This document shows positions 1 to 9,822 of a stretch of DNA of 64,000 bases, piece after piece. The stretch is from an uncultured Acidobacteriota bacterium (GTDB lineage Bacteria; Acidobacteriota; Blastocatellia; RBC074), in the NCBI GenBank assembly GCA_963800895.1, contig CAWDDA010000015.1:231003-295002 (forward strand), written 5' to 3'. Made by a program: the position numbers and the translations under genes. The notes under the pieces were generated by a model. The model ran no database searches. It saw only the letters and a list, made by a program, of their open reading frames with translations, and was not told where the DNA came from. The number at the start of each line of letters is the position of its first letter. The stretch's first letter is position 1.

Positions 1-149
1 CAAGATTTGCCTGCGAGTCGAACGGGAATGGATAGATGGTAAGATGAAAGTATATATCGAAGATTATGTGTGCGGCCACAAGCGTTGTAAAATATGCAGC
101 GATGGAACAGTTTCCTGCCCCTGAAAGAATTGAGGTTAATGTCCTGATA

Positions 150-362
150 ATGCCAGGATTTACGGCAGAGGCCTCGCTTTACCGAACACCGAAGTGCTAT
201 CGAGACACCCACGGGCTCGAGCGCCGGAGCGATGCAGTAGAGCCACAAACGCATTTAAGGCCGCCGGTTTACAATAGGTGTACGTGGTTAAACTTTTGTT
301 GCATCGAGTATCACGATTCGTGGTGTTGCAAAAAGTTTCACGAGAGCTGCCTGCTACTATGA
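150..362 (+). CDS. small Cys-rich peptide, PGFTAE-box paralog A (70 aa; ORF track 66..362)
   Basis: The in-frame ATG at 150 gives MPGFTAEASLY, the same N-terminal box as the ORFs at 579 and 959. There are 7 Cys, mostly in the C-terminal half. A GAGG lies about 14 nt upstream. Confidence 0.5.
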   Translation: MPGFTAEASLYRTPKCYRDTHGLERRSDAVEPQTHLRPPVYNRCTWLNFCCIEYHDSWCCKKFHESCLLL

Positions 363-578
363 TAAATGCCAACAAGTAGTTGGAGTCGAGTAGCCGGATG
401 GAGCGTGGCGAAATCCAGAGGGATAAAAAAGACGCAACCTTTTCTACTTCAACACCGATGTCACTGAGAAGTTCTTTGTGCGCGTGGATCTGACCGAGGA
501 GTTTCCGTTCCTGATCACTAAGATGTCGCCGTATTGTGATCGTCAAGGTTGATTGTAAGATGAAAGGAGGGAAATGAA

Positions 579-809
579 ATGAAGTACATGCCAGGATTTA
601 CCGCAGAGGTATCGCTTTATAAGCCGAGTGGATATTATCAGATGATCACTCTTCTAAATCAGGCTAACGTAACCATATATCCAGCACAATTGCTGGTCAC
701 AGATACGCAGTCCTTTTGGCCAGGCTTACTTCATTGGCCCATTGTCGAGCCAACCTGTATCCGCCTGTGTCTACCAGGGGGAGGATACTGCCGTTGGATT
801 TGCTTCTGA
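579..809 (+). CDS. small Cys-rich peptide, PGFTAE-box paralog B (76 aa)
   Basis: Starts MKYMPGFTAEVSLY, contains GYYQ and YPAQL, and has 4 Cys in the last 17 aa. A strong AGGAGGG RBS lies 8 nt upstream. Confidence 0.6.
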   Translation: MKYMPGFTAEVSLYKPSGYYQMITLLNQANVTIYPAQLLVTDTQSFWPGLLHWPIVEPTCIRLCLPGGGYCRWICF

Positions 810-958
810 GGCCTGGTGCAGGGAGAAAAGTCGGTTTAAGACGAACGGACTGATAGACTGATAACGCCACTTGTAAATAATCGAGGAGTTTCCCTTTCTG
901 GTATTACGACCGGTGAGGTCGAAAAACCCAAATGTCGGGAGGTAAAGAGGTAAGCGAA

Positions 959-1177
959 ATGACAAGATTGCCAGGATTTACCGCCGAAGCGTCTGTGTAC
1001 AATATAAACGGCTATTACCAAACGGCTATTAAGGCTGGCCAAGTCAGTGGAGCTGTATATCCAGCTCAACTGATGGCGGAGCTTTTCGGCCACAGTCAAT
1101 GGGGTTGTTTGGTTTCCAAGTGTATTAGATTGCCGCTTGGAAATGAACGATACGCTCTCTATTGCTACTGCTGGTAG
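959..1177 (+). CDS. small Cys-rich peptide, PGFTAE-box paralog C (72 aa; ORF track 932..1177)
   Basis: Starts MTRLPGFTAEASVY, contains GYYQ and YPAQL, and has 4 Cys in the last 23 aa, sharing a CIRL motif with paralog B. An AGAGG lies 8 nt upstream of the ATG at 959. Confidence 0.6.
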   Translation: MTRLPGFTAEASVYNINGYYQTAIKAGQVSGAVYPAQLMAELFGHSQWGCLVSKCIRLPLGNERYALYCYCW

Positions 1178-1238
1178 CGCGCGTAGGATGCGCTGAAGTA
1201 CGAAATGCGTCGCATCGCGATTGATGCGGTTCGGGAAG

Positions 1239-2253
1239 CTAACTGAAAATGCCATGTGCTGCCGACCGGCTCCGTTTAATGAGCTGGCATGCAGCTTCGA
1301 AGACATCCTCCTCGCTCACCGCATTCAAAGCAGTCGCGCGGATGTGCATACGATTTGGACTCAGCACGTCGCGTGTCAGAGGCGTCAAAGCTCCCGAAGC
1401 TGTTACCACCGGAGCGCCCGCTGCAGCGGCAATGTGCGCCGGGCCCGTATGATTTGCAATAAAGAGACTCATGCGCGCGGATGCGGAGACAAAATCCTCT
1501 AGTTTTGGTGACTCGAGTACGATCACTCGTTTAGAACCCACCTGCTTTGCGATCTTTTTTGCGAGACCCTTTTCATCGGGGCCGGCAAAGATGAGCGCGC
1601 GCGCATCGAAGTTATGGATCATTCGAGCTGCCAGAGATGCGAAGCGTTCGGCCGGCCATCGATCTTTTCCGCGCCTTGCACCGGCATGAACTCCCACAAG
1701 TAACTCTCCGGAGCCGACCCGATGTTTGGAAAGAAGCTTTTCAAAGCGTTGATCAGCGTCGGTGTTGGTGAACAATCGCGGCTCGGCCTCGACAGGTCTG
1801 ACCCCCAGAGGTTCAAGCCTGCGCAGGAACTCGTGTGCAACATGCAGGCTGACGGGAGTGCGATTCGAGATTATCCGTCTCAGCTTGTCGAGGGTGCGCG
1901 GTGATTCTTCTTCAAGCGTCGGTGCGGAAACGAGTCTGATTGCCAGCGAAGACTCGAAGTTCCTTGCAAGATCGATTGCGACGTCGAAGGCCCTTCCGCG
2001 AAGCATTCGAGCGGTCTGCGCGGTCTGGTAGAGACGGTTAGGAAGAAATAGACCTCGAGCCAGCCGTTCTGTACTCAGGATCTCATCCGCAAGCTGTCCG
2101 AGTCTAGAGGATGTCGGTGCCCTCCCGGCTCGCGGCAATCGTGATCGAGGCGTCAGGAAGGTGCCGACGGAGAGAACGCAATGCAGGAACTGCAAGCACG
2201 CTCTCAGTGATGCCAGTGATGTGTGCTATGAAGATTGCTTGCGGCGTTGGCAT
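1239..2253 (-). CDS. glycosyltransferase family 9 (heptosyltransferase-like), interrupted by a 1-nt frameshift near 2104-2108
   Basis: The ORF 1239..2195 carries [14 protein letters not shown] and other C-terminal GT9 motifs. The true N-terminus [41 protein letters not shown] lies in another frame, starting at the ATG at 2253. Confidence 0.7.
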
Positions 2254-3810
2254 CCTCTAACTGCTGCTCCGGAAGCAGGCTGCGTCCGGTCATCTCCTCG
2301 GGCGGCTGAATTCCAAGCAGTGCGAGCATTGTAGGCGCGATGTCTTCAAGGGCGCCATTCGATCGAAGGGATCCCGTGAATCGCGGATCGCATAATATAA
2401 AGGGAACTGGATTGTTGGTATGTGCGGTGCCTGGAGCCAACGTCTCAGGATCGATCATCTGTTCGGCGTTGCCATGGTCGAGGTAATAATTGCCGCCCCC
2501 TTGACGCGTTCGATCGTTCCAATGATCCATCCGAGACAGGTATCAATCGCCTCGACAGCAGCGATCGTCGCCTTCAAATTGCCGGTGTGACCAACCATGT
2601 CGGCATTGGCAAGGTTCACGATTATCACGTCAAACTCGCCGTCATCGAGTGCACGGCAAATCTTGTCGGTCACTTTGAAAGCGCTCATCTCGGGCTTCAG
2701 ATCATAGGTTGCAACATCGGGTGATGGGACGAGGATGCGGCTCTCACAAGGAAACTCAGGCTCGACACCTCCGTTGAAAAAGTAAGTAACGTGGGCGTAT
2801 TTCTCGGTCTCGGCAACCCGCAGGTTCCGAACGCCATGTGAAGCGAACACCTCAGCCAGCGTGTTGTGAATCGAAACTGGCGGAAAGACTATTGGCGTAG
2901 TAAACGAGCGATCGTACTGTGTAAACGCAGCAAAGTTGAGCTCGGAAATGGGTTCGCGTACAAAGGCATCGAACGTACGGCCCGAGAACGCGCGCGTCAA
3001 CTGGCGGGCGCGATCTGCGCGAAAATTGAAGAAGATGATCGAATCGCCGCTTCGGACACGACCGATCGGATTGCCGAGTTCGTCAATGATGACAACAGGC
3101 TCGATGAATTCATCCGTGACTCCGAGCTCGTAAGACTCTTGAATCGCGCGACGCGGATCAGTCCCCATCCGGCCTTTGCCCGACGCAATCGCTAAATAGG
3201 CCCGTTCAATCCGGTCCCATCGATTGTCACGGTCCATTGCAAAATATCGGCCGCAGAGCGAGGCGATCCTTCCAACTCCGATGCGCTCCATTTCAACGGT
3301 CAGCTCGTCCAGGTATTTCAAAGCTGCTGTGGGAGCAGTATCACGTCCGTCCGTAAAACAATGGACGAAGACTCTCTTCACGCCTCGCGAAGCAGCCATC
3401 TCCAGTAAAGCCACCAGGTGTGAAAGCGAAGAATGAACGCCGCCGTCGGAGACAAGACCCATGAGGTGCAGTGCTGTATGTTCTCCAGCATCTACAGCTG
3501 TCTGAAGAACAGGGTTAGCTGCAAACGTGCCAGACGCGATGGCTTCGTCGATCCGTGTGATGTCCAGTGGGACTATGCGGCCTGCTCCGATATTGAGGTG
3601 GCCAACTTCAGAGTTACCCATGAAGGGTTCAGGGAGTCCGACGCGGGCTCCGGAGCCTTCGAGCAGGGTATGTGGATATTTCAGTAGGTACTCATCAAGG
3701 AAAGGAGTTCGAGCGAGTGCGATCGCATTTCCTTCAGTCGGTTCAGCATCACCAAATCCGTCGAGAATGATCAGCGCGACGGGACGCTTTTCAAGCATCG
3801 TCACCGGCAT
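2204..3810 (-). CDS. gpmI: 2,3-bisphosphoglycerate-independent phosphoglycerate mutase, split by a frameshift near 2474-2484
   Basis: The ORF 2455..3810 encodes LIILDGFG through [10 protein letters not shown]. The ORF 2204..2530 continues in another frame with [12 protein letters not shown] through EMTGRSL. Confidence 0.9.
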
Positions 3811-3962
3811 ACAGCACGATCATAACCGAAAAGAACGTGACCACGAAAGAACCCTGTGCTAGACTTTTCAGTCGACGAGTCGTGCAGCCGAAGGGGAGGT
3901 GTGCACGACTAATGCCTCTGAGCCTTAACGAGGATTCGAACCTCGTGGCATAATGACTAGCA

Positions 3963-6341
3963 ATGTTTTGTACAGTTTGTGGCCAAACAATAGCTGATGG
4001 ATCGACCTTCTGTCCCTCCTGCGGGGGCGAACTCGCCACCGCCAGGCTTCCCAAACCGCCCGGATCGAATTCGGATCCTTTGAGGACTTCGGTCTGGCCG
4101 TCAGGTGAGAGCCAAGACCCAGCTTTAAAGAAGACTGAAGGCGGAAACCCAACAGCACCGGTTTCAGCTGGTGACCCGGGGCCGCCTCCTGTCCGCGCGC
4201 GTACGAGTGGTAATGCGGTAGGGAAAGTCCTGGGAGGGCGGTACCAACTCGACGAGTTCATCGCTTCGGGTGGAATGGGTGATATTTACCGTGCTCGCCG
4301 CCTGCATATCGGCGACACCGTGGCTGTAAAGGTCCTTCGCCCGGAGGTTATCGAGAACGCTCAATCGAGACAGCGGTTCTACCGCGAGGCAAGGGCTGCC
4401 GCGATGCTTCACCATCCAAATGCCGTCGTGATTCACGACTTTGGCGAAGACCAGGATGGGACGGTGTACATTGTGATGGAGCTTCTGGCGGGACAAAGTC
4501 TGCGCCAGGCACTCATCGAGACTGGCAAGATCCCGCCTGATCGCGCTGCAAATATCATCCGGCAGGCCTGCGCGGCACTCGAGGCCGCACATCGGAGCGG
4601 CATTGTTCATAGAGACATCAAGCCGGACAACATAATGCTTCTTGACGCTCACGGCGAAGGTGATTACGTCAAGCTGCTCGATTTCGGCATTGCCAAACTG
4701 CGTGACGTGATGCTCGATACGCTGAGTCTCGAGAAGAACCTCACCAACGTCGGGACGGTGATCGGGACGCCTCACTACATGTCACCCGAGCAATGCCAGG
4801 GAGAGTCTGCTGACGCCCGCTCTGATGTCTACAGTCTCGGTGTGGTGACGTACGAGATGCTGACCGGTATGACACCGTTTATGGCAAAGACTCCTACCGG
4901 AGTGGCCATCAAGCACGTCACCGAGAAACCAAAGCCACCTTCGGAAGTTCACCGCGCGATCAACTCCTCGCTCGAGAAGGTGATCCTCAAAGCGCTCGAG
5001 AAGGAACCGTCAAAGCGGCACCAGTCAGCTATCGAGTTTGCAACTGATTTCGCGAACGGTGTAGTTGCTGAAAAAGCGACGGCTGTTCTCGCTGGTGTCC
5101 CAACCACAGCTGGCTTAGGTGCGGACACTGACGCGCAGAACCTTGCCGGCGAAGAGAAAGCACAAAAGCCTTCCGGAGTTGCCGACGAAGTGCGGCCTGA
5201 CTATGAGACCCAGTTCGCACCTCCCGACGGAACTGAACCGCTAAAGGCAGGTGCCACAGTACCCATCGGAGCCCCGGCGAACCTCGATAAGAACAAAGAA
5301 GCCGTATCGAAGCCGGAGAAGAAAGCGCCAGCAAAACCTGATGGCAAACTCGCGGCCGGTGCTGCCGCCTTGAAAACCGTTCCGGCGCCGGGTACTCCTT
5401 CGAAGACGCCGGCGGGCGCACCTCGTCGAAGCTCCGCGGCTCCGATGATTGGAGCCGGGGTGGGCGGCTTAGTGATCCTCGCAGTAATCGGATGGTTTGT
5501 TTTCGGCAGAGGAGGCGCGAATCAACCTTCAGTCGCTCCGCCTACACCGACTGCTTCTGTGGTTCCGAGTCCTGAAGTCTCTCCGACGCCACTCAATAGC
5601 GCGTCAAATCCTCCCCTGGGAATGAAGTACGTTCTGGGCGGGGAATTCATGATGGGTCGGGATGATGGAGAGGACGACGAACGTCCGGCGCACAGCGTGG
5701 CAGTCAAGCCGTTCTTTATCGACGAGACTGAGGTCACGAACGAGCAGTATCAAAAGTTTATAGCGGAGAATAATTATCCGCCGCCACCCTCGTGGCCGGA
5801 TGGTAAGTTACCTGCAGGATCGGAGACGCTTCCCGTCACCGATGTTACCTGGGAGGATGCCCGTGCTTATTCCAGCTGGGCTGGCAAACGACTTCCATCC
5901 GAAGAAGAGTGGGAATTCGCGGCTCGAGGGACCGATGGTCGGCGCTATCCGTGGGGCGAAACGTGGCAAACCGACGCTGCCAACGTCCTGTCGAAGACAG
6001 GTGAGAAACGTACGGCCGAACCTGTCGGGCGCCATCCTCTAGGCGCAAGTCCATTTGGAGTTCACGATCTTTCAGGAAATGTCTGGGAGTGGACCTCAAG
6101 TGATTTTGTGGCTTATCCGGGCGGCAAGGTAACTGACACTCCTCCGGGTTATAAGAATATTAAGGTGATCCGCGGAGGATCGTATGTGAGCCAGGCGGCG
6201 CAGGCTACTGCGACGTTAAGACGTGGCTGGCCCGCGACTCGGGACGACTGGCCGCGACCTGGTGATCAGTTTTACAAGCCGGGTACTGTCGATTATTCAA
6301 AGACTGGATTTCGTTGCGCGCAGGATGCTCCTCAGCCCTAG
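3963..6341 (+). CDS. Ser/Thr protein kinase with N-terminal zinc ribbon, one TM helix and a C-terminal FGE-sulfatase (SUMF1-like) domain
   Basis: CxxC..CxxC at the N-terminus. Kinase motifs [11 protein letters not shown] and SPE. TM segment [20 protein letters not shown]-terminal [30 protein letters not shown] and RGGS motifs. Confidence 0.85.
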
Positions 6342-6385
6342 CACCAGCGCAGCGCATTGAGGCGACAAGCTCGCCGGGTGACATT

Positions 6386-7499
6386 ATGAAAAAACGAACG
6401 CTCCTCATCACGTGTCTACTTCTGTTGGTAATTACAAGTGGGACGACTTATGTATTTGCTCAAGGCGGCGACGGTCGCCTGCCGGGCGCCAAGTCTACAA
6501 AGCCAAAACCGACACCAACCCCGGCGGCGGCGAAACCGGTGAAAGAAGAGCCGCCGCCGCCACCGGCAGCGCGTGCGCCTGCGAGCATAACGCCGGTTGT
6601 ATTCAACCAGCTGGTAACTGGAAGTCTTGATCCACAGCAGTCCGGACAGATTAAGGTCGGAATCTATTATGACGAGTTCAGCGTCGCGCTGAGTGACGCA
6701 GACCTCTTCACGATCTTTTTGCAAAGCGCCAATCCTGCGCTTGCAGTTCAGATCTACGAAAAGGAAGGCAAGGGCCTGCCGACGCTGCGTGACCCGCGCA
6801 GCGGAGAGTTCAAGCTCGATACAACAGGCGGCACGGTGCCCAAAGAAGGCGAATATCGCATCCGCGTGGTCGGCGCCGTGGACCCAGCGATCGGACCAAT
6901 CGGCTACACGCTCCGTTTGAACAGGACCGGTCTTACCGAATCAGGTTATCAGGCTCGTTTACAGGCCATCACCGCAGCATTCAATGCTCCTGATTCAAAG
7001 AACATCGACGACACTATCAGCCGTCTCGAAAAGCTGGCCGCCGATGACGATAGCGAGCCCGGCGCATGGGAACTGCTCGGAGTAATGTATGTCTATCACA
7101 AGAATGACCTGGTGAAGGCTGCCGCCGCCATGGAAAAGGCGATCGCGCTCAAGGGCGCCGCTGTTTTTCGTGTGACCTACGATCCGCAACCCGGCCGGAA
7201 GGCGAACAAGAAGCCGGACGGGAAGTATGATTTTGTGGTATCCGAAATCGGGCTGGTTGCGGATCACGCCGGATCGTCTGCAGCTGGTGGATGCAGCTAA
7301 CGAAGCAGCGCAAGTGCTCAATCTGACCAGCTCACAGATCAAAGAAGTGACACCGTCAAAGATGAATACGCTTTTGGTGATTCTTCTTAAGTCTGTCGAT
7401 CAATCACGTCCATACGCCTTCACCCCTGGATCCAAGTCACAACCTGAGATTGATCTGATTCTCAAGACCATCAGGCAACACGTGCCGCCCAGAGGGTAG
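6386..7499 (+). CDS. secreted hypothetical protein (signal peptide, Pro-rich linker, TPR-like segment), frameshift near 7250-7262
   Basis: MKKRTLLITCLLLLVITSGTTYVFAQ signal peptide at the ATG at 6386. The ORFs 6314..7300 and 7227..7499 join sensibly as VVSEIG/WLRITPDRLQLVD. Confidence 0.55.
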
Positions 7500-7502
7500 T
7501 TG

Positions 7503-8909
7503 ATGCCGAAACTTTGGGGCGGAAGATTTTCAGGAGAGACTGACCCGCATTTTGCTTCTTTCAATTCGAGCTTCCGGTTCGATCGACGATTGTTGAGTGC
7601 CGATATTCGCGGCTCGATCGCCCAGGCCGCAGCGCTTGGGCGAGCCGGAATAATCGATCAGAACGAAGCTCGCGCGATCGTCAATGGGCTCGAGAAGTTG
7701 CTTGAGCTATCAAAAGATCCTGCCTACATAGCCAATCCTGAATTTGAAGATACTGAAGATGTGCACAGCTTTATCGAAGCCCGGCTTGTCGAATTGATTG
7801 GGCCCGCCGGCTACAAGCTTCACACAGGACGCAGCCGCAATGATCAGGTCGCAACCGCCACTCGAATTTTTCTGCGCGATGAGATCGATCGCATCGACCG
7901 TCTAATAAGAGAGGTTGAAGCCGCTCTGGTGAAACTCGCCGAGCGGTATAAAGATGATCCGATCCCCGGCTACACGCATCTTCAGAAGGCACAACCAGTA
8001 CTATTCGCGCACTTCCTGCTCGCCTATTTCGAGATGCTCGAACGCGATCGCGCCCGTCTCTCCGATACCAGGCGCCGGACAAATGTTTGCCCGCTTGGAA
8101 GTGGTGCACTCTCGGGAACCGGCTTTGGAGTAGATCGTGAGTGGATTGCTGCTGAGCTCGGATTTGACGGGGTGACACACAACAGCCTCGATGCCGTCAG
8201 CGATCGCGATTACGTGATCGAGTTCATATACATCGCCGCAAATACGATGATGCATCTTTCGCGACTCGCAGAAGACCTGATCATCTATTCGACCCAGGAG
8301 TTTGGTTTCATCAAGCTGGGGGATGCCATCGCGACCGGTAGCAGCCTCATGCCGCAGAAGAAGAACCCCGATTCCCTGGAGCTCATCAGGGGAAAGGCGG
8401 GCCGCGTGTTTGGACATTTGATGGCAATGCTTACGGTGTCAAAGGGGTTGCCGCTCGCGTACAACAAGGATTTCCAGGAAGACAAGGAAGCAGTTTTTGA
8501 TACGATCGATACATTATCCGAATGTCTGCGCGTAACGGTCACCGTGTTGAAAAATGTAGAGCTCGATACAACGCGCGCAAGAGCGGCCGCCGAAAGTGAC
8601 TACACTGATGCGACTGATCTTGCCGATTATCTTGTACGTCGCGGGTTGGAGTTCAGAAACGCGCACGAAATCGTCGGCAAGGTGGTCATCTATGCTCTCG
8701 AGAAAGGCAAGCAGTTGAGAGATCTCAGGCTCGAGGAACTTCGTGACTTCTCGACAAAGTTTGATGAGGATGTATTCGCGGAATTGTCACTCGAAAAAAC
8801 GTTGTCAGCGAGAGCGCAAACCGGTGGTACCTCGCCAGAGCGAGTTAAAGACGAATTGATGCGCGCAAACGAAATTCTATCCAGGGGACAAGATTTGGGG
8901 CGTGAATAA
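7503..8909 (+). CDS. argH: argininosuccinate lyase
   Basis: MPKLWGGRFSG at the start; HTGRSRNDQV and GSSLMPQKKNPD signature motifs. Confidence 0.95.
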   Translation: MPKLWGGRFSGETDPHFASFNSSFRFDRRLLSADIRGSIAQAAALGRAGIIDQNEARAIVNGLEKLLELSKDPAYIANPEFEDTEDVHSFIEARLVELIGPAGYKLHTGRSRNDQVATATRIFLRDEIDRIDRLIREVEAALVKLAERYKDDPIPGYTHLQKAQPVLFAHFLLAYFEMLERDRARLSDTRRRTNVCPLGSGALSGTGFGVDREWIAAELGFDGVTHNSLDAVSDRDYVIEFIYIAANTMMHLSRLAEDLIIYSTQEFGFIKLGDAIATGSSLMPQKKNPDSLELIRGKAGRVFGHLMAMLTVSKGLPLAYNKDFQEDKEAVFDTIDTLSECLRVTVTVLKNVELDTTRARAAAESDYTDATDLADYLVRRGLEFRNAHEIVGKVVIYALEKGKQLRDLRLEELRDFSTKFDEDVFAELSLEKTLSARAQTGGTSPERVKDELMRANEILSRGQDLGRE

Positions 8910-9090
8910 GACCCGATTGCGAAGAACCGGCCAGCGAGCTGGGAACCCACTGGCCGATTCTGAACTGCTGATGTCCTCACCTCATCAACAGTCGGACTAT
9001 CCTACAATTTGCTACAATGCCTATCCCATTGTCAAGCGTCAAGATAAAGGATTGCTAATATAGTACTTATAGCTCCACCCTGACGGCACT

Positions 9091-9822
9091 TTAATCTGAC
9101 CTCACAATTCGTTGACCGTCGAGGCAAGCCATCAGTTTCGACAATGCATCCTGGACTGCTTTTTCGTCCTTGGATTCGAGTGTCAATTTGACGCGATAAT
9201 CGGTGGACGAAAAATTTGGATAGGATCCGACCATTACTGAAGGGCATGCCAGCGCGACCTCGCTCAAACGTTCCGCGAGCTCAAATTCATCTTCGGTTGT
9301 GTAGATTGCCCTGACGAAGAATGGATTCGCACGAAAGCTTTCGCGGATCGCCTGGAATTTCATTCGAAACAGTTCAGGTACTCCGGGAAGAACGAATACG
9401 TTCCGACAACAGATCACTGGCCAACGCAAATCCGGAGCTTCAATCAACTCGCTCCCTCGCGGAACGTCTGCCATTCGAAGGCGGGATTCGTTCGTTCGGT
9501 CACCGAAATACTGACGGATGCGTGTTTCGAGCTGCGGATGGCGAATGACCGGTTCGTTGAACCCGAGCGCAATACCTGCAATTGTCACGTCATCATGGGT
9601 GGGCCCGACGCCACCCGATGAAAAGACGATGTCAAATAAACTTGACAACTCTTTCACCGCCGCTGCAACTTCATCGACCGAATCAGTGATGACAACGATT
9701 CGACGCAGCTCGATCCCGAGCTCTCTGAGCTCGCCGATCAGAAAGCGCGCGTTCGACTCTTCGGTTTTTCCACTGAGAATCTCATTGCCGACTATCAGGA
9801 TTGCTGCCGTCGATACAGTCAT
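9091..9822 (-). CDS. molybdopterin-binding (MoCF_biosynth / CinA N-terminal-like) domain protein
   Basis: ILIVGNEILSGKTEESNARFL and SGGVGPTHDDVT motifs. Confidence 0.7.
   Translation of the reverse strand: MTVSTAAILIVGNEILSGKTEESNARFLIGELRELGIELRRIVVITDSVDEVAAAVKELSSLFDIVFSSGGVGPTHDDVTIAGIALGFNEPVIRHPQLETRIRQYFGDRTNESRLRMADVPRGSELIEAPDLRWPVICCRNVFVLPGVPELFRMKFQAIRESFRANPFFVRAIYTTEDEFELAERLSEVALACPSVMVGSYPNFSSTDYRVKLTLESKDEKAVQDALSKLMACLDGQRIVRSD

Follow-up and report, generated by a model that had tools for sequence, protein, structure and literature searches.

At the start of a 64,000-nucleotide stretch of DNA from an uncultured Acidobacteriota bacterium (assembly GCA_963800895.1, contig CAWDDA010000015.1, positions 231,003 to 295,002; the whole stretch is referred to below as the window), a tandem array of small genes encodes cysteine-rich peptides that share an N-terminal sequence box. 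Three of these genes, here called A, B and C, are complete, and they are genuine genes of a very large and unnamed family of peptide precursors. Members of the family combine a conserved leader that is usually free of cysteine with a variable core in which the number of cysteines is usually even. In related genomes they are linked to an operon for a protease of the S8 family, a small protein with a CxxC motif, and a protein homologous to the domain of unknown function (DUF) of the cyanobactin enzymes PatA and PatG. From these comparisons, we consider it probable that the peptides are leader-guided precursors, which a split PatA-type protease would cleave so as to release peptides rich in disulfides.

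The peptide genes and their family

A preliminary description of the window, made from its letters alone, noted an array of three open reading frames (ORFs) on the same strand with the shared box PGFTAE[AV]S[LV]Y. The box is present in all three, starting in the first 7 residues, and the genes are real, but the array has at least four members, the first of which is cut by the edge of the window.

2..121, plus strand: cut fourth family member; last 39 codons and stop codon, ending ...KICLRVEREWIDGKMKVYIEDYVCGHKRCKICSDGTVSCP; the window edge removes its 5′ part
150..362, plus strand: peptide A, 70 amino acids (aa), within ORF 66-362; likely start ATG at 150, with GAGG at 132-135
150-248, plus strand: leader of A (MPGFTAEASLY...AVEPQ), followed by its core at 249-359
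579..809, plus strand: peptide B, 76 aa; AAGGAGG at 564-570
579-689, plus strand: leader of B (MKYMPGFTAEVSLY...TIYPAQ), followed by its core at 690-806, with the C-terminal end EPTCIRLCLPGGGYCRWICF
959..1177, plus strand: peptide C, 72 aa, within ORF 932-1177; likely start ATG at 959, with AGAGG at 946-950
959-1069, plus strand: leader of C (MTRLPGFTAEASVY...AVYPAQ), followed by its core at 1070-1174

A Shine-Dalgarno site lies ahead of the start of each of A, B and C. Within a three-way protein alignment the residues P-G-F-T-A-E, S and Y are invariant, and GYYQ and YPAQL are common to B and C, as had been observed. The back-translated box (CCNGGNTTYACNGCNGAR, allowing at most one mismatch) matches the 64 kb exactly three times, at 153, 591 and 971, all on the plus strand; shuffled sequences led to an expectation of 0.09 matches, and none of 100 shuffles contained three. 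The same DNA pattern had no match in the viral contigs that were scanned. Over the first 38 nucleotides A and B are identical at 30/38 positions, fewer than the approximately 33/38 given previously, and A-C and B-C are each identical at 26/38. A recount of the cysteines gave the same totals as before, with 7 in A, of which 6 belong to the core and 1 to the leader, and 4 each in B and C. The core frameworks are C-x4-CC-x7-CC-x6-C in A, C-x3-C-x6-C-x3-C in B and C-x5-C-x13-C-x-C in C, and the junction between leader and core is marked by AVEPQ at residue 32 of A, and by TIYPAQ and AVYPAQ at residue 33 of B and C, respectively.

None of the common types of leader could be recognized in these peptides, in agreement with the first reading of the sequence. 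Scans of A, B and C against Pfam and NCBIfam at E ≤ 10 gave no match. Sec, Tat and lipoprotein signals were ruled out by the lack of a hydrophobic h-region, a twin arginine or a lipobox, and a double-glycine leader by the lack of a GG motif at the junction. An Rfam scan of the whole window also gave no match, and a promoter and terminator scan of positions 1-1400 returned counts no higher than in shuffled sequences.

Searching with the A/B/C alignment identified 222 small proteins (E ≤ 0.01), and a profile built from 72 members extended this to 4,234 representatives of 50%-identity clusters (E ≤ 1e-3). Homologues sharing the leader in other genomes, which the preliminary description had proposed to look for, therefore number in the thousands. 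The closest relative carrying A and B is NCBI GCA_975094425.1 (L001), in which positions 2227-2907 have 89% nucleotide identity to 150-829 of the window. Its orthologue of A has 79% aa identity, with every cysteine retained and a ratio of nonsynonymous to synonymous substitution rates (dN/dS) of 0.49. Orthologues of B have 89% aa identity in L001 (dN/dS 0.24) and 82% in a second genome locus, L085 (0.23). The orthologue of C is P0002 in locus L084, with 89% aa identity, all cysteines retained and a dN/dS of 0.33, and the contig also retains the adjacency of B and C. These ratios, by the Nei-Gojobori method, rest on small substitution counts; every cysteine is conserved across the orthologues of A, B and C. 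Relatives of B, A and the cut fourth peptide occur together in L085, where the leader-bearing peptide at 2688-2990 is 72.5% identical at its C-terminus to the cut copy over 40 aa, and the end of a gene at L001 1805-2095 has 84% nucleotide identity to 65-122 of the window.

It could be argued that small ORFs of this kind are chance occurrences or decaying pseudogenes. The genes are indeed small, they lie in a region of low G + C content (47-48% in window positions 1-1200, compared with about 56%, range 54-60%, in the flanking genes at 1200-7000), and neighbouring genes contain frameshifts. The dN/dS values taken together with the size of the family exclude chance ORFs, and the data on homologues and selection in effect refute decay: there are thousands of family members, the orthologues are intact with dN/dS below 0.5 and all cysteines kept, synteny is conserved, and each start has a Shine-Dalgarno site. 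The probability that we would leave to this explanation is negligible.

Leader and core

Conservation within the family is concentrated at the N-terminus. In the box, G, F, T, A and S are invariant in 120/120 homologues and P, E and L are nearly so; the tyrosine after the leucine is present in 94/120, and a further tyrosine 16 residues after the box proline in 113/120. Of 348 non-redundant members, 284 have a motif of the form [VILMA]xP[AQ] at residues 25-42, and the box is conserved far more strongly than this junction motif. Leader and core were compared in the 202 members in which P(A)Q is clear, with leader length counted from the proline of PGF. Of these, 178 have leaders of 32-34 residues; the leader is free of cysteine in 180 and has a single cysteine, as in A, in 21. 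The segment after the junction motif has a median length of 44 aa and a cysteine content of 11.8%. An even number of cysteines is present in 185 members, while 16 have an odd number and 1 has none; the main classes are 4 cysteines in 74 members, 6 in 58, 8 in 27 and 10 in 12. A conserved, cysteine-free N-terminal part thus precedes a variable part with even cysteine numbers, which is a leader/core architecture and points towards pairing of the cysteines in the product.

The preliminary description had seen a conserved N-terminus with hypervariable tails. As a statement of leader and core this stands, but some cores belong to conserved subfamilies. The pattern E-P-x-C-x3-C-L...G-x-C-R-W-I-C-[FY] of the B-type core is kept in a subfamily of 22 members, and the A-type framework C-x4-CC-x7-CC-x6-C recurs in loci from Methylobacter luteus, Methylococcaceae, Calothrix and Beijerinckiaceae. 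For peptide B, AlphaFold2 predicted a beta-hairpin formed by residues 60-64 and 71-75 (CIRLC...CRWIC), with a predicted local distance difference test score (pLDDT) of 71-76, and a disordered leader.

Cysteine-rich peptides could instead use their cysteines as metal ligands, in the manner of metallothioneins or chalkophores, either inside the cell or after secretion. The 11.8% cysteine of the cores would suit such a role, as would the many metal-hungry hosts (methanotrophs, ammonia oxidizers, anammox bacteria and Methanoperedens), the cytoplasmic location of all the maturation proteins, and the CxxC or CxC pairs in both accessory proteins described below. However, the bias towards even cysteine numbers includes 6 and 10, which is a signature of pairing and not of Cys4 sites; the cores within one locus are hugely diverse in sequence and spacing; and ordinary heterotrophs (Acidobacteriota, Chloroflexota, Actinoplanes) are also among the hosts. 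We therefore regard metal binding as improbable.

Some members depart from the usual form. A 223-aa protein encoded at L085 1725-2396 begins with the family leader (MNIPQFTAEASLYRTSNLY...IVPA), and its very long core contains dozens of cysteines, which extends the family beyond peptides of 70-120 aa. Members P0122, P0125 and P0175 have a second leader box, or the entire leader twice in tandem, ahead of a single core; these could be degenerate duplicates joined by read-through, or genuine double leaders.

An operon linked to the peptides

The genomic context was analyzed in a scan of one genome per species, which gave 80 loci in which operon genes were sought by phmmer on six-frame ORFs. On the same strand ahead of the peptides, L001 has the 3′ part of an S8 protease gene (148-555), a 71-aa ORF (560-775) and a gene for a 324-aa PatG_D/PatG_C protein (796-1770), and the same order of S8 gene, small protein gene and DUF gene is found upstream of the peptides, again on the same strand, in L002, L003 and L085. 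Across the genome loci, the DUF gene was found in 75, the S8 gene in 65-66 and the small protein gene in 57, in the nearly constant order S8, small protein, DUF and then one to six peptide genes. Among the 51 informative loci, which have at least 3.5 kb of upstream sequence, three (L030, L034 and L074) have no operon and two more have it downstream, and the operon is linked to the peptides in about 46-48.

The expectation that a maturation enzyme would be encoded upstream is thus supported by the closest relatives, L001 and L085, and by most of the 80 loci, where the operon lies directly upstream on the same strand. The enzymes that had been listed as candidates (radical SAM, YcaO, lanthionine synthetase, C39-ABC transporter and proteins with a recognition element, RRE) are not the ones found there; the partner is instead the operon for the S8, small CxxC and DUF proteins. 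In an all-against-all clustering of ORFs from 83 loci and the first 12 kb of the window, no neighbour was conserved besides the S8 gene, the DUF gene and the peptides, the small protein having been mapped separately, and genes for radical SAM enzymes, YcaO proteins, lanthionine synthetases, transporters or immunity were not recurrent in the clustered loci. For the array described here, the operon would be located upstream of the window, as its relatives and a relic of the DUF gene within the array suggest.

The distribution of these loci is wide. Bacterial hosts include Acidobacteriota (many of them Pyrinomonadaceae), isolates of Nitrosospira and Nitrosovibrio, Methylobacter luteus and other Methylococcaceae, cyanobacteria including Calothrix NIES-4105, Brocadia, Nitrospira, Chloroflexota, Actinoplanes, Verrucomicrobiae and one spirochaete. 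Archaeal hosts are represented by three metagenome-assembled genomes (MAGs) of Candidatus Methanoperedens (L006, L012 and L054), which have the DUF gene and peptides and lack the small protein, with a full-length S8 gene in L054. Their occurrence in archaea suggests inter-domain transfer, or possibly contamination during binning.

Two of the loci without an adjacent operon contain orphan peptide genes in unrelated neighbourhoods, L030 (MAG MFD01916.bin.1.29) and L074 (MAG MFD02242.bin.1.183). The same MAGs hold the S8/small protein/DUF operon on another contig (L040 for L030, and L051 for L074), which suggests that maturation can occur in trans. Tolerance of action in trans also lends some support to a scheme in which the operon performs the last step only, on cysteine-rich cores that have already been modified by an unlinked enzyme, such as a radical SAM or MNIO protein; the role of the DUF, which is itself unsettled (PMC4259220), would be compatible with this. 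Against such a scheme, no modifying enzyme is recurrent within 10 kb in the 80 loci, which cover many phyla and one archaeal lineage, and the wide horizontal spread of a compact operon argues for self-sufficiency. An unlinked modifying enzyme accordingly has a low probability in our assessment.

The operon proteins and their cyanobactin relatives

The S8 protein has its best structural relatives in the Protein Data Bank (PDB) in PatA (4H6V, 3ZXX and 3ZXY) and PagA (4H6W), with E values of about 1e-29 to 1e-27. Matches to ordinary subtilisins are weaker (1e-19), and the match to the PatG macrocyclase (4AKS and 4H6X) is weaker still (4e-12) and aligns from residue 65 only. Each operon has one S8 gene. 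The N-terminus has the form M..PLDLVKLTALMERTSG.PEVKIGLIDGPV, with no signal peptide and no propeptide, and 52-53 of 54 full-length copies retain the Asp/His/Ser triad. For the DUF protein there are matches to PF18047 and PF18065 (E about 1e-35). Its profile has a single match in the PDB, the PatG DUF (4UVQ), and a single-sequence phmmer search had none. Here it is a separate protein and not a C-terminal domain, and there are at least 8,000 stand-alone homologues, all with E ≤ 1e-10, annotated only as ‘hypothetical protein’, ‘PatG domain-containing protein’ or ‘cyanobactin maturation protease PatG family protein’. Together, the S8 and DUF proteins match consecutive parts of TIGR03895, the model for PatA and PatG, a match that is partial and below the cut-off of the model, and by sequence they look like a PatA that has been divided into two genes.

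These similarities raise the question of whether the peptides are true cyanobactins, with cores that are cut free at each end and then cyclized head to tail by a PatG-type macrocyclase. The S8 and PatG_D/PatG_C proteins are hallmarks of that pathway, the domain pair being otherwise characteristic of PatA and PatG, and some of the loci are cyanobacterial. Cyanobactins also have ribosomal, leader-bearing precursors, often several per cluster, and cytoplasmic enzymes with no dedicated exporter. The differences are more extensive. The protease and DUF are encoded by separate genes, usually with the small CxxC protein between them; the single S8 protein of each operon is PatA-like, with a far weaker match to the PatG macrocyclase and the N-terminal part of that match absent; and neither a PatG macrocyclase nor a heterocyclase, an oxidase or a prenyltransferase is conserved in the clustered loci. 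The precursors are unrelated to PatE and have another leader, with one long, cysteine-rich core of 35-45 aa in place of short cassettes of 6-20 aa, and no conserved AYDG-type follower, the variable C-termini often ending right after the last cysteine. Furthermore, according to a review from 2015, cyanobactin clusters had until then been known from cyanobacteria only, and they always have both an A and a G protease (PMC4663559), whereas the system described here is found in many bacterial phyla and in Methanoperedens. With one PatA-like S8 protein per operon and no follower motif, PatG-type macrocyclization was rejected, and that the products are true cyanobactins is very improbable.

The third protein of the operon has about 70 aa and the conserved sequence PHRVRLPGFIxDEEIGLGDVIKRATxxxGIKPCGGCExRAAALNRWxVF, in which PCGGC is invariant (examples are L001 560-775 and L018 7415-7633). 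It had no match in Pfam and two chance-level matches in NCBIfam (E about 0.04). Part of it, RLPGF(I/L)x(D/E)E(I/V)GLGD, is reminiscent of the leader box and could make the protein a leader mimic or competitor, or could be a chance resemblance. Cyanobacterial loci and some archaeal ones lack the small protein and yet have an unchanged box, and it is therefore not the sole reader of the box.

The N-terminal arm of the DUF protein contains further elements of the leader junction. A motif of the form [ILV]xPQ is located 18-30 residues before the domain, with a cysteine pair (CxxC or CxC) 2-8 residues further on, in 48/66 proteins, and the density of P(A)Q in this arm is 8-fold higher than in the rest of the protein. 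Examples are L046 9038-9973, L033 5485-6468 and L059 1306-2205, where the motif is IIPAQ. Because this motif is common to the leader ends and the DUF arm, one partner, the S8 protein, may read both, and the arm would be a site of self-processing or a pseudo-substrate tether. The CxxC or CxC pairs of both accessory proteins could be a redox or a metal site. A more speculative extension, which we think has a modest chance of being correct, is that this is a new class of peptide natural products, spread horizontally among bacteria and into archaea, in which the DUF and CxxC proteins read the box and couple PatA-like cleavage of the leader to oxidative folding of the core in the cytoplasm, through the [ILV]xPQ-CxxC arm.

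Cleavage and the fate of the core

The explanation that we favour, of leader-guided precursors and a split PatA-type protease, would involve the following steps. Each precursor consists of a cysteine-free leader of about 35 aa carrying the (M)PGFTAExSLY box, the putative recognition element, and a core of about 35-45 aa. The box may dock the precursor on the S8/DUF complex, and the cytoplasmic, PatA-like S8 protein would then cut at or next to [VI]xP[AQ](Q). The freed core is expected to fold into a mini-peptide stabilized by disulfides, in the case of B a beta-hairpin with two disulfides. The peptides would act outside the producing cell, most plausibly as antimicrobial or competition factors. 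Processing after YPAQ had been suggested previously for these peptides. The broader motif [VI]xP[AQ](Q) does form the boundary between the cysteine-free segment and the segment with even cysteine numbers, and this makes a cut there the somewhat likelier event, a position we infer from its place in the sequence.

The same system might instead cut within the box, after T-A-E-A-S, removing only 8-13 residues and leaving LY...[VI]xP[AQ]Q in the product as a conserved N-terminal domain, comparable to pediocin-like bacteriocins, in which the N-terminal half is conserved and the C-terminal half varies. PatA-like enzymes cleave after G(L/V)E(A/P)S (PMC10885120, PMC4282754), to which the invariant A-E-x-S of the box, with A or V at P2, is similar, and the box is much better conserved than the junction motif. 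However, the PatA site of cyanobactins directly precedes the core, while TAEAS is located about 25 residues before it and [VI]xP[AQ](Q) takes the adjacent place here, at a fixed distance. The recurrence of [ILV]xPQ in the N-terminal arm of the DUF protein also speaks for the junction, and the nearly invariant leucine after the box serine, together with the tyrosine in 94/120 homologues, suits a binding motif better than a scissile site at which P1′ would be free. On balance, we think that cleavage within the box is unlikely, although its likelihood is not trivial.

Several observations weigh against a split PatA-type protease that frees disulfide-rich cores. The protease is a cytoplasmic enzyme, and in the clustered loci no conserved neighbour encodes an exporter, an immunity function or a thiol oxidase. 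The likeness of T-A-E-A-S to the cleavage motif of PatA means that the cut could fall in the box. The DUF of the patellamide system bound none of the linear substrates with which it was tested (PMC4259220). No S8 or DUF gene is present anywhere in the 64-kb window, which starts inside the array. An alignment by hhalign of MNMPGFTAEASLY with RVRLPGFIxDEEIG of the small protein is weak (P = 0.002, probability 14%). Structure prediction is of limited help: the AlphaFold2 model of peptide B has a mean pLDDT of 51, with values above 70 in the C-terminal hairpin only, and that of a stand-alone DUF protein (30 close homologues) has a mean pLDDT of 43 and is unusable.

Similarities to other peptide systems

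The preliminary description compared the array to precursors of RiPPs (peptides that are made by ribosomes and then modified post-translationally) or leader-dependent bacteriocins. A precursor consisting of leader and core is supported by the data on the family, but nothing beyond proteolysis and presumed disulfides is indicated, so that RiPPs in the strict sense, whose cores undergo a modification besides leader removal, are only a candidate class for these peptides. In its general outline, the pathway would work like a leader-dependent RiPP or bacteriocin maturation that is built from cyanobactin-type parts.

Other systems are known in which one conserved leader serves many unrelated cores, such as the prochlorosins and the peptides with leaders of NHLP and Nif11 type, whose paralogs are sometimes encoded far from the enzymes. 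The family described here resembles them in the fusion of a shared leader to many cores and in having several paralogs per genome. Their leaders serve LanM, YcaO or radical SAM enzymes and have a double-glycine end for a C39-ABC transporter, and none of these is found here. Among the disulfide-rich peptides of animals and plants, conotoxins and beta-hairpin peptides such as tachyplesin (C-x3-C-x4-C-x3-C) combine a conserved pro-region with a hypervariable mature part and conserved, even cysteine frameworks. The analogy with their precursors extends to the conserved pro-region and to the B core, C-x3-C-x6-C-x3-C, with its predicted beta-hairpin; there is no homology, and those precursors use a signal peptide, unlike the family here. 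In class I lanthipeptides, a dedicated subtilisin-like S8 protease, LanP, removes the leader at a conserved motif (PMC10885120). A dedicated S8 leader protease is also predicted for the present system, but there is no lanthionine synthetase, and the S8 protein is closer to PatA than to the subtilisins and has the PatG DUF as its partner. There is a real chance that the system is a class of its own.

In the literature, in which subscription journals were thinly covered, neither the leader nor the split PatA arrangement was found to be described, and nor were cyanobactin-type proteases that go with cysteine-rich precursors outside cyanobacteria. The string GFTAEAS returned 0 papers, and PF18047, PF18065 and PatG_D gave no relevant match. 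This appears to be a peptide-maturation system that is widespread and undescribed.

Origin and surroundings of the array

The window has kept traces of how the array arose, in the form of remnants of the end of the DUF gene in front of peptide genes.

454..543, plus strand: relic of the DUF tail, last 30 codons (TDVTEKFFVRVDLTEEFPFLITKMSPYCDR), ahead of B
877..913, plus strand: second, weaker relic of the DUF tail, ahead of C; IIEEFPFLVLR, plus YYDR in another frame

The first relic has 83% identity to the DUF tail of L001 by tblastn (E = 1e-16), and 76% over 33 aa to the whole DUF protein (E = 2e-11). The second has 6/11 identities (E = 0.06) and is not significant alone. By blastn, window positions 901-984 have 74% identity (E = 4e-9) to L001 1755-1836, which comprises the end of the DUF gene and the start of the first peptide gene. 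Because relics of the DUF tail precede B and, more weakly, C, we suggest that new copies arise through tandem duplication of a unit made up of the end of the DUF gene and the first peptide gene, which would be followed by divergence of the core. The resulting gene orders are the cut copy, A, B and C in the window; the orthologue of the cut copy, A and B in L001; and the 223-aa member, the orthologue of the cut copy, B, another member and A in L085. The low G + C content of the array fits a segment that was acquired horizontally or is evolving fast.

Downstream of the array, the convergent neighbour is a GT9 glycosyltransferase gene, as noted earlier (1239-2195, minus strand; PF01075, E = 8e-18), with its first approximately 49 residues in another frame (2104-2253, minus strand). 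It is followed by an iPGM gene (PF06415 and PF01676) in two overlapping ORFs, 2204-2530 and 2455-3810 on the minus strand. These are apparently two frameshifts within 1.5 kb, due to assembly errors or pseudogenes. On the plus strand, 3963-6341 encodes a 792-aa protein that has a zinc ribbon at the N-terminus, a Ser/Thr kinase domain, and an FGE-sulfatase domain at the C-terminus, and is unrelated to the array. In L001, the region downstream of the array (3209-9819) encodes Amidohydro_3, FTR, GXGXG and formate-dehydrogenase-like proteins, and not GT9 and iPGM. The difference between these downstream genes indicates that the array is located at a synteny breakpoint between otherwise similar genomes.

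Significance

A family of more than 4,000 clusters at 50% identity has no Pfam or NCBIfam model, and its hosts include nitrifiers, methanotrophs, anammox bacteria, soil Acidobacteriota and archaea that oxidize methane anaerobically. The structure of the PatG DUF was solved in 2014 and its role has been open since then (PMC4259220). The family links a new kind of precursor to the protease module of the cyanobactins. With the PatA/PatG DUF in a natural, genetically separate form and part of an operon for three proteins, whose peptide substrates would be inexpensive, the system provides an easy setting in which to ask what the job of this domain is. If the products are disulfide-rich, the cores would be a large, untapped library of compact scaffolds, and the leader and protease would provide a portable processing tag. 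If cleavage and folding are also coupled, these organisms would hold libraries of disulfide-rich mini-proteins, a bacterial counterpart of peptides of the conotoxin and defensin types, and the long-enigmatic cyanobactin DUF would gain a job of its own.

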